Shown here: positions 1,430 to 2,114 of the stretch, piece by piece
How the letters are laid out: the number at the start of each line of letters is the position of its first letter
Position numbering within the stretch: position 1 is the first letter of the stretch
Virus record (IMG/VR): IMGVR_UViG_2529292735_000014
Direction: 5' to 3' (one strand)
DNA length: 5,892 bases
From: a virus
Taxonomy: Duplodnaviria > Heunggongvirae > Uroviricota > Caudoviricetes
Translations under genes and position numbers: made by a program
The notes under the pieces: generated by a model
Seen by the model: only the letters and a program-made list of their open reading frames with translations
The model's database searches: none
What the model was told of the DNA's origin: nothing

Positions 1430-1455
1430 CAGGGCGATGTGCGATTATCGCCCTG
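1430..1455. repeat. inverted repeat CAGGGCGAT-N8-ATCGCCCTG (9-bp arms); same arm sequence as the palindrome at 2097..2114
   Basis: 1430-1438 CAGGGCGAT pairs with 1447-1455 ATCGCCCTG. It lies about 140 bp downstream (- strand sense) of the 154-aa gene. There is no U-tract in the - sense and only a weak GUUUG in the + sense. Confidence 0.5.
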
Positions 1456-1595
1456 GTTTGAGGGGGATCAGGTGTTATTTTTATCTGTCGTCAGTGGGCT
1501 AAACCATCCACAATTTACATCGCAGGACTGATGCGTTCTGTCCTCGTGTTTTCTCCTGCCACAATGCTTTTCCGCCAGCCTTTATGATGGCTCTT

Positions 1596-2060
1596 TCAAC
1601 ATCCCCGCTCGTATCGCAAGGGCTGAAATACGTCATTAATGAAATATTCGCTTATGTCCGGAAGCGATACTGCAAAATTATTTGTTTGTTGCGCCGTCCT
1701 GCTATGCAGCAAAGCGGCATGCTTTAATGCGTCCTGTGCTTTCTGGAATTTAAGTGCATAGTCAGTGGCGATTTTTTCCAGTTCAGTGATTCGGTTGTCT
1801 TTGGTTTCCAGCCAATCAAGTAGCGCCAATACTTCAGGATCCCCGACATCCAACACTGTTATGCGTGATTTTTCATAATGTTCGTCAGCAAGAGTTCGAC
1901 CAATTTTGAAATCTCCATCATCACCATAACCGGAGCAGGCATAAACAACCTGTGCTCCAGATATTCGCTGAATTGACATTTCCTCACCGCAAATAGGGCA
2001 TTTCGGTACTGGCACAGGTGAATAACGTTCACGTAATGCCTGATAGTTGATTTCGCTCAT
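1596..2060 (-). CDS. hypothetical protein, 154 aa, N-terminal zinc-ribbon-like motif (CPICG...YACSG) followed by a predicted helical region; function unknown
   Basis: ATG at 2060 is preceded by AAGGAG with about 8-nt spacing. The ORF is intact to the stop at 1596-1598. It is noticeably AT-richer than the flanking parMR and A genes, suggesting separate acquisition. I do not recognise the family. Confidence 0.65.
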   Translation of the reverse strand: MSEINYQALRERYSPVPVPKCPICGEEMSIQRISGAQVVYACSGYGDDGDFKIGRTLADEHYEKSRITVLDVGDPEVLALLDWLETKDNRITELEKIATDYALKFQKAQDALKHAALLHSRTAQQTNNFAVSLPDISEYFINDVFQPLRYERGC

Positions 2061-2096
2061 TAAGTCGTTCTCCTTGTTTATGTACTGAGGTGAGAG

Positions 2097-2114
2097 CAGG
2101 GCGAACTCGCCCTG
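2097..2114. promoter_or_regulatory. 18-bp palindrome CAGGGCGA-AC-TCGCCCTG between the parR-like stop and the 154-aa gene; candidate operator or RNA stem-loop
   Basis: Perfect inverted repeat (7-8 bp GC-rich arms) 9 bp after the parR-like stop and 37 bp before the ATG at 2060. No U-tract follows it on the - strand transcript, so it is not a canonical intrinsic terminator. It shares the CAGGGCGA arm with the palindrome at 1430..1455. Confidence 0.45.

Follow-up and report, generated by a model that had tools for sequence, protein, structure and literature searches.

What are two palindromes built from the same arm doing on either side of a single AT-rich phage gene? The question is raised by a 5,892-nt stretch of DNA (IMG/VR record IMGVR_UViG_2529292735_000014, hereafter the window) which, judged by its sequence, comes from a P88-like (Xuanwuvirus, P2-like) Escherichia coli prophage and in which an Ead/Ea22-like gene, ead, is bracketed by a left and a right inverted repeat. 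The gene occupies the cos-proximal cargo slot, between the gpA-ParM-ParR genes and cos and the portal gene; the order in P88 relatives is gpA, parM, parR, cargo, cos, portal. An earlier note, made from the letters alone, had proposed that the palindromes are operators for a common binding protein, either the ParR-like protein or the zinc-ribbon protein encoded between them, or else the boundaries of a small mobile cassette. We think it probable, with some room for doubt, that they are neither of these and that both are stem-loops on the transcript that close transcription units, at a transcript end or between cistrons. The features concerned are the following.

1384..1428, no strand assigned: conserved block flanking cos, with three TTGTGCA repeats and an A7 run; no further conserved sequence lies between it and the cargo (from the ends of homology, the flanks and genome termini)
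1430..1455, minus strand: left palindrome, CAGGGCGAT-N8-ATCGCCCTG, 1 nt short of the cos-flank block; the true stop codon of ead precedes it by 12 nt
1468..2060, minus strand: Ead/Ea22-like family gene (PF13935), 196 aa in relatives, its frame broken in the window near 1605 and 1550
2097..2114, minus strand: right palindrome, effectively CAGGGCG-AGTT-CGCCCTG by sequence and fold, 8 nt after the parR stop codon
2123..2434, minus strand: gene for a ParR-like partition protein of 103 aa, with no other conserved gene between it and the cargo (Pfam PF10784, 80.5 bits; phrog_2515 'partition protein'; annotated in P88 and relatives)

Both palindromes and their common arm had been placed exactly by the earlier note. 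The right one reads CAGGGCGA-AC-TCGCCCTG at 2097-2114 and the left one CAGGGCGAT-GTGCGATT-ATCGCCCTG at 1430-1455, and TCGCCCTGCT is common to both ends over 10 nt. On the strand of the gene (minus), the left palindrome folds as RNA into a 9-bp stem with an 8-nt loop (-15.6 kcal/mol, z = -3.6) and the right one into a 7-bp stem with a 4-nt loop (-13.0 kcal/mol, z = -3.8), so that the eighth 'arm' base of the right repeat is in fact a loop base. As at an intrinsic terminator, each GC-rich stem-loop lies directly past the end of a gene, 8 nt after the stop codon of parR and 12 nt after that of ead, which alignment to gp56 of phage P88_4B11 puts at 1468-1470.

The arm is not a common sequence. Five copies of the 8-mer CAGGGCGA are present on the two strands of the window, where 0.26 are expected (0 of 200 shuffles reached five), and only 0.01 matches to the pattern CAGGGCG-N4-CGCCCTG would be expected there; the density of the 8-mer is 0.85/kb in the window versus 0.08/kb in 100 kb of a host chromosome. 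No palindrome with CAGGGCG arms was found in 100 kb of the chromosome of a host carrying this prophage, and the 37.1-kb genome of P88_4B11 contains only these two. Among 2.9 million viral contigs (IMG/VR), the exact left pattern was found in 24, of which 23 carry it at the same locus and the remaining one is an unrelated GC-rich chance match. A dispersed repeat of the REP/BIME type, the generic element against which the original proposal had been set, was rejected on these counts: dispersal was seen neither in the host chromosome nor in the phage genome nor in IMG/VR. The same numbers bear on the idea that the common arm is a coincidence between two independent GC-rich stems of terminator type. 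The true stems share 7 bp only, the right-loop variants CATC, TATC and TATT share just 7 nt with the left arm, and CAGGGCG-N4-CGCCCTG was met in more than 100 unrelated, mostly GC-rich viral contigs among the matches listed, apparently inside coding DNA; its 14 specified bases alone are therefore not distinctive. Coincidence nevertheless seems distinctly unlikely, given that the window exceeds the host sequence about tenfold in density of the 8-mer, that the 37.1-kb phage genome has 11 GC-rich perfect hairpins, among which a common stem is seen in these two neighbours alone, and that the P88-type left terminator described below also carries AGGGCG/CGCCCT, with the order of the arms swapped.

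The behaviour of the palindromes was followed in a set of 80 loci with near-identical ParR from IMG/VR, together with phage records and the window, using the parR end and the cos flank as BLAST anchors; 79 loci hold both anchors and are the ones counted here. The cargo between the anchors ranges from 537 to 3715 nt and falls into 35 length classes. In 7 of 8 related phages the match to the window breaks off at 1428/1429, one base short of the left palindrome, and picks up again at 2072 (P88, PhiR44_2), at 2120-2128 in four phages, or at 2289 in one. The right palindrome is on the conserved parR side of the boundary and the left one on the variable side.

On the parR side, about 64 of the 79 loci carry CAGGGCG-N4-CGCCCTG only a few bases past the stop codon of parR, whichever cargo follows; it is retained in phages without an ead gene and stays when the cargo is replaced. 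Its loop varies (AGTT, AACT, CATC, TATC, TATT, GAAAC), one type with CAGGGCA...TGCCCTG has undergone a double change from G-C to A-T, and many of these hairpins have an outer stem extension, CATCAGGGCG...CGCCCTGATG. When 14 distinct variants were aligned, 90.7% of the cells were paired, compared to 31-42% with the partner columns slid, and three pairs had changed on both sides. Another lineage has in its stead a hairpin of unrelated sequence, CGGGGTG-N6-CGCCCCG, ahead of the first cargo gene. Kept at the parR stop codon together with its pairing, the right palindrome belongs to the conserved parMR module, and it is the structure that is conserved. In two loci (L077 and L231), the first 35 nt past the parR stop codon show the loop AACT rather than AGTT with the stem unchanged; this inversion is a palindrome-mediated flip at the DNA level.

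Of the 79 loci, 27 have the left palindrome CAGGGCGAT on the cos side, in each case abutting the cos flank (...ATCGCCCTG-C-TGCACAATAG), whereas about 26 have AAAACGCCCTCYTCCAGGGCGTTTATTT instead and the remaining left ends consist of GCGCC...GGCGC with a T-run, of GCGGC-type terminators, or of nothing. Sister phages and other cargo types show canonical terminators, a hairpin with a T-run, at the place of the left palindrome. Its stem is constant while its loop varies (AATCGCAC, AATCGCGC, AATCACAC, AATCACGC), and one stem variant keeps a U-G pair in the sense of the gene only. It is also found behind diverged ead 3' ends and behind a pseudogene with a PAPS-reductase domain; the latter, in E. 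coli GDSC2BY4G (locus L116, 2605-3561), has an internal stop, and the left palindrome behind it bears a single mismatch (ATTGCCCTG). The P88-type end terminator, AAAACGCCCT-CYTCC-AGGGCGTTTATTT, is cos-proximal and occurs at 2427-2460 of locus L001 and in 25 other loci; it contains the AGGGCG/CGCCCT hexamers of the window palindromes in swapped arm order. CCAGG/CCTGG (Dcm sites) overlap several of these stems.

The presence of a hairpin at the cos end of the cargo varies with how the last gene is oriented. Of the 59 loci whose last ORF points toward cos, 55 have a GC-rich hairpin within the final 50 nt of cargo, compared to 2 of the 18 in which it points away (Fisher p = 5e-11); when distinct cargo types are counted, the numbers are 20 of 23 and 1 of 8 (Fisher p = 3e-4). 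Such a dependence is expected of elements at transcript ends and not of packaging or recombination sites. The complete P88_4B11 genome (37.1 kb) shows which transcript this would be. The gene order in it is int, C and then cox...gpA, parM, parR and ead, all rightward; ead closes this operon, and the linear record ends 84 bp past its stop codon, at window position 1383/1384, with the left palindrome 46-71 bp from the end of the genome. The early operon therefore closes with ead, which lies at the far right end of the virion DNA.

Combined, these results suggest the following sequence of events. Transcription of the rightward early operon cox...gpA-parM-parR-ead would run toward cos, with ead as its last gene. 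The right hairpin would most likely attenuate read-through into the cargo and/or shield the 3' end of the parMR message from 3' exonucleases, and the left hairpin would most likely form the protected 3' end of the early/cargo transcript. Because the left hairpin has no T-run, release itself may occur further on, at a conserved weak hairpin with a T7 run at 1419-1395, or through Rho. Intercistronic stem-loops without a U-tract act in these two ways, by attenuating read-through and/or by protecting the message from 3' exonucleases. We infer action at the RNA level, and the choice among termination, attenuation and stabilisation; the positions of the hairpins, their conservation and covariation, their positional equivalence with terminators, the dependence on gene orientation and the protein family are observed directly.

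Several points weigh against transcript-end stem-loops. No U-tract follows either stem in the sense of the gene, as the earlier note had also stated: the tails are CTCTCACCTC and CTGCACAATA, and a terminator scan passes the right stem only, and on the plus strand only. The covariation in the right hairpin is modest support, the sequences being close kin and the compensatory changes few (3 cells). In the left stem, single unpaired substitutions are found in several lineages, one of which pairs on the plus strand only. Finally, a terminator model explains neither why an arm of 7-8 nt is common to two neighbouring hairpins nor why AGGGCG/CGCCCT recurs with swapped arms in the P88-type end terminator; local duplication, gene conversion between the neighbouring palindromes or chance among GC-rich stems are possible origins of the common arm.

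The plus-strand signal has to be considered by itself. On that strand the right stem is followed by ATGTTGTGTT, and, because this T-rich tail makes the site terminator-like in the scan, the right hairpin could also stop antisense transcription that enters parR from convergent cargo genes. In a more general form, both palindromes would be terminators or insulators of plus-strand transcription that guard ead, parR, parM and gpA from late-operon or convergent transcripts. Genes convergent with parR do occur in many cargo types, the 10-bp stem of the P88 type is followed by TTGTGTTATTC, and one left-stem variant has a G-U pair on the plus strand only. However, the T-rich tail of the right stem runs into the final codons and the stop of parR and may be kept for coding, the left stem is followed on the plus strand only by GTTTG, and a plus-strand terminator-like site is already present at 1307-1332, before cos. 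Since there is, moreover, no plus-strand gene in this cargo type and the end hairpins track genes that point to cos, we hold this explanation to be unlikely for the pair.

The two ends of the slot do not travel together. Of the loci with the right AGTT form, 17 have the left palindrome and 7 have other left ends, and the left palindrome is associated with CATC (3), TATC (2) and the CGGGGTG hairpin (5) on the right. As right and left types combine freely, the pair is no fixed set of cassette ends. The cassette proposed by the earlier note therefore survives in part: the cargo between the palindromes is exchangeable (7 of 8 phages), but with ends that assort independently it is not one cassette. 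A mobile cassette with paired ends, in the manner of integron attC sites, MITEs or IS inverted repeats, was rejected on the same ground, together with the fact that the right end outlasts the cargo and that Pfam, PHROG and PADLOC searches of the cargo proteins found no recombinase.

A looser role in exchange can be proposed, in which the palindromes are DNA-level substrates for recombination during cargo swaps, either folded (cruciform) or as microhomology, and in which the arm is a crossover sequence or a duplication left by insertion. The breakpoints lie 0-2 nt from the palindromes, the left one being at 1428/1429 and the right one, in several cargo types, immediately past CGCCCTG; the arm is identical at both ends, with TCGCCCTGCT in common over 10 nt; the inversion of AGTT to AACT in one lineage is an event of a palindrome at the DNA level; and a preprint on P2/P4 hotspots (bioRxiv 10.64898/2026.02.27.708500) calls the recombination process still to be elucidated. 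Yet the left palindrome is found with CATC, TATC, AGTT and CGGGGTG right ends and AGTT with other left ends, most cargo types have a quite different canonical terminator on the left, and the presence of a hairpin goes by how the last gene is oriented, a condition that a recombination site does not need. The conserved parR and cos flank already provide homology for exchange, and the cargo encodes no recombinase. We consider such substrates quite unlikely. The narrower proposal that the hairpins at the edges of the slot are folded DNA sites for cargo capture or exchange, loosely like attC and without a dedicated recombinase in the cargo, is in our view very unlikely; if true, attC-like hairpin sites would supply the missing recombination process of P2-like hotspots.

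The operator proposal, in which the cargo gene would be under the control of one DNA-binding protein, be it the ParR-like protein or the zinc-ribbon Ead-like one, started from identical 8-nt arms in two inverted repeats around one gene and from a possible zinc-ribbon module in its product. It did not hold up. The spacing of the arms is unlike in the two repeats (2-4 nt versus 8 nt), and the variable loops and the covarying stem pair point to structure rather than to base-specific contacts. The right site is kept without ead and the left site is absent from 52 of the 79 parR-bearing loci. Both sites are past stop codons, and a consensus scan over 900-3600 found no promoter-like site; the promoter-like arrangement that had been pointed out, TTCGCC-N15-TACATA, is indeed present on the minus strand but was not among the products of that scan. 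The likely centromere of ParR (the ACGGGATT...AATCCCGT repeats) would lie upstream of parM and is unrelated in sequence, whilst both palindromes are downstream of parR. Operators are thus the least credible of these explanations, and transcript-end stem-loops remain the reading that we prefer.

The gene between the palindromes was correctly perceived as AT-richer than its neighbours: GC is 0.44-0.45 over 1501-2100 versus 0.55-0.57 in the parR/parM and portal flanks, about 11 points lower in the gene. Its product, to which the earlier note had assigned no family, matches Pfam PF13935 (Ead/Ea22-like) with 109.4 bits (cut-off 27; E = 2.8e-31), residues 2-140 aligning to model positions 1-134 of 139. 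RefSeq agrees in calling it 'ead/Ea22-like family protein', and PF13935 was present in 120 of 120 homologues among those listed. The AT-richer gene is an Ead/Ea22-like family member acquired as cargo. The 154-aa ORF at 1596..2060 (minus strand), with CPICG...YACSG, is present in the window as had been reported, but it is a shortened reading. The protein is 196 aa long in P88_4B11 (gp56) and in a cluster of 486 members at 98% identity, and compared to relatives the window has one extra base near 1605 (C4 versus C3) and one near 1550 (T4 versus T3); these two homopolymer miscounts break the frame and leave 154 instead of 196 aa. The start of the gene is marked by one further feature, part of a block, ACATAAACAAGG, that is common to P88-type cargo.

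2070..2075, minus strand: ribosome-binding site AAGGAG, 9 nt before the ATG at 2060 (from the sequence and intergenic comparison)

Homologues of the protein are strongly mosaic, with a common MSEINYQALRE, one of several N-terminal modules, a coiled-coil (LLDELE...RIAELEK) and variable C-termini; N-terminal, coiled-coil and C-terminal modules are exchanged among Ead-like proteins. The zinc-ribbon-like N-terminus that had been suggested is plausible. A CxxC, a third Cys and a His are conserved within the N-terminal module present here, the zinc-ribbon region of topoisomerase I is matched weakly (E = 0.005), and an AlphaFold model (mean pLDDT 63) has a small beta domain (strands 29-34 and 37-41, pLDDT about 70), a long helix over residues 75-125 and a small C-terminal part. 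Among solved structures no sequence match was found in the PDB, the C-terminal domain of lambda Ea22 included, and no Foldseek match was below E = 0.5. PADLOC models matched neither the Ead-like protein nor its neighbours, and the PHROG families that it matches have no known function. Of 5426 complete E. coli genomes, 294 contain part of the cassette, in every case chromosomally, and all six annotated regions that were fetched (6/6) have it in the same prophage slot. In one Ead-like variant of 199 aa (P0024) the stop codon is lost, and the frame stays open across the left palindrome and on into cos-flank sequence (...TTDKNNTCSPSNQGDNRASPFCTIVHKFAQFF). In this slot, some prophages have either a tandem pair of ead/Ea22-like genes or an ead preceded by a 174-aa unknown gene and a gene for a ClpX-type zinc finger (E. 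coli AHB24, locus L117, 1569-2704; loci L114 and L115).

The arrangement resembles several known ones. In lambdoid phage genomics, 'morons' are genes added between conserved genes together with a terminator of their own. Like these, ead is an AT-richer single gene between conserved modules with a stem-loop at its end; unlike them, it showed no promoter of its own in the consensus scan over 900-3600, and its end stem-loop has no T-run. The REP sequences of the malE-malF operon are intercistronic or 3' stem-loops that stabilise the upstream mRNA. They share with the palindromes studied here a GC-rich stem-loop without a U-tract, a few nt past a stop codon, either within an operon or where it ends, but the present palindromes are not dispersed repeats (0 in 100 kb of host, two in the phage). 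Lambda Ea22 and P22 Ead (PF13935) have the same build, a short N-terminal part, a long helix and a variable C-terminus (PMC10834534); the differences are that the gene considered here is by cos in a P2-like phage rather than in a lambdoid exo-xis region, and that its product has a CxxC...C...H N-terminal module absent from many family members. Pro-lysogenic activity has been reported for lambda Ea22, in lambdoid phages only (PMC7093339, PMC10834534).

The interval between gpA and gpQ by cos is a hotspot of variable, often antiviral cargo in P2-like phages (PMC9122126; bioRxiv 10.64898/2026.02.27.708500), and variable content in this interval was likewise found here in phages that are otherwise near-identical. 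The tin/old locus of P2 (Rousset et al. 2022, PMC9122126) has the same position, from A to the portal gene Q by cos, and as here many different cargo sets are found among close relatives. It differs in that P88-like phages have a conserved parM-parR between gpA and the variable part, and in that the cargo here gave no match to known defence models (PADLOC). Hairpins at the edges of the slot are not mentioned in these two sources on the hotspot. The observation from which this analysis started is thus real and non-random, and its object is ordinary: a cargo gene of a known family in a known prophage hotspot, with stem-loops at transcript ends. Public phage and E. coli records already contain the identical sequence in annotated form. 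The significance beyond annotation is little; the setting has been placed and the gene model corrected to 196 aa. In P88-like phages the slot is bounded by the stem-loop after parR and, if the last gene points to cos, by an end hairpin at the cos flank, and these bounds are precise landmarks for delimiting hotspot cargo. Ead/Ea22-like genes are frequent in the slot; they could be candidates for defence or anti-defence activity.

The window as a whole is 94-98% identical to Escherichia phages P88, P88_4B11, Chuche and PhiR44_2, to Citrobacter phage Shae_phiSM and to other Xuanwuvirus (P2-like, Peduoviridae), the value being 97% for P88, P88_4B11 and further members of the genus. The genes on either side of the slot, recognised by Pfam, are as follows.

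to 976, plus strand: portal gene gpQ
2439..3398, minus strand: ParM actin-like segregation ATPase gene, 319 aa (PF06406, PF21523)
3431-5791, minus strand: replication protein gene gpA

Six single-base differences in homopolymer length (685, 1079, ~1550, ~1605, ~3495 and 5818) separate the window, and only the window, from all relatives compared. Five of the six break conserved frames (that of the portal gene once, those of ead and gpA twice each), and the one at 1079 is intergenic. They look like the typical pattern of sequencing or assembly error rather than the decay of a prophage. An Rfam search returned no known RNA family, with only two sub-threshold matches (nadA at 1592-1630 and a group II fragment at 970-1095) that were taken as chance.

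Between the cos end and the cargo, the TTGTGCA repeats at 1402-1428 are accompanied by the A7/T7 run, and this block may be a terminase recognition site. On its minus strand, a weak hairpin followed by T7 at 1395-1419 is terminator-like. Two loci (L094, IMGVR_UViG_2648501669_000002, and L101, IMGVR_UViG_2778261593_000009) lack ~80 bp, roughly window 1338-1418, between two TTTGTGCAC repeats; as this loss takes in the cos end, packaging of these prophages is probably impossible. Just upstream of parM and overlapping the 3' end of gpA are two 42-nt direct repeats, at 3427-3468 and 3501-3542, which are 81% identical and each contain the palindrome ACGGGATT-N4-AATCCCGT; they are candidates for a parC-like centromere or operator of the ParMR pair. 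On the other side of cos, the plus-strand terminator-like site at 1307-1332 (GTGCGCAGAAAAAGCGCGT followed by a T7 run) probably marks the end of the late P-Q transcript, and a further palindrome, GGGGCAT-N9-ATGCCCC, lies at 1003-1026, after the portal stop codon.

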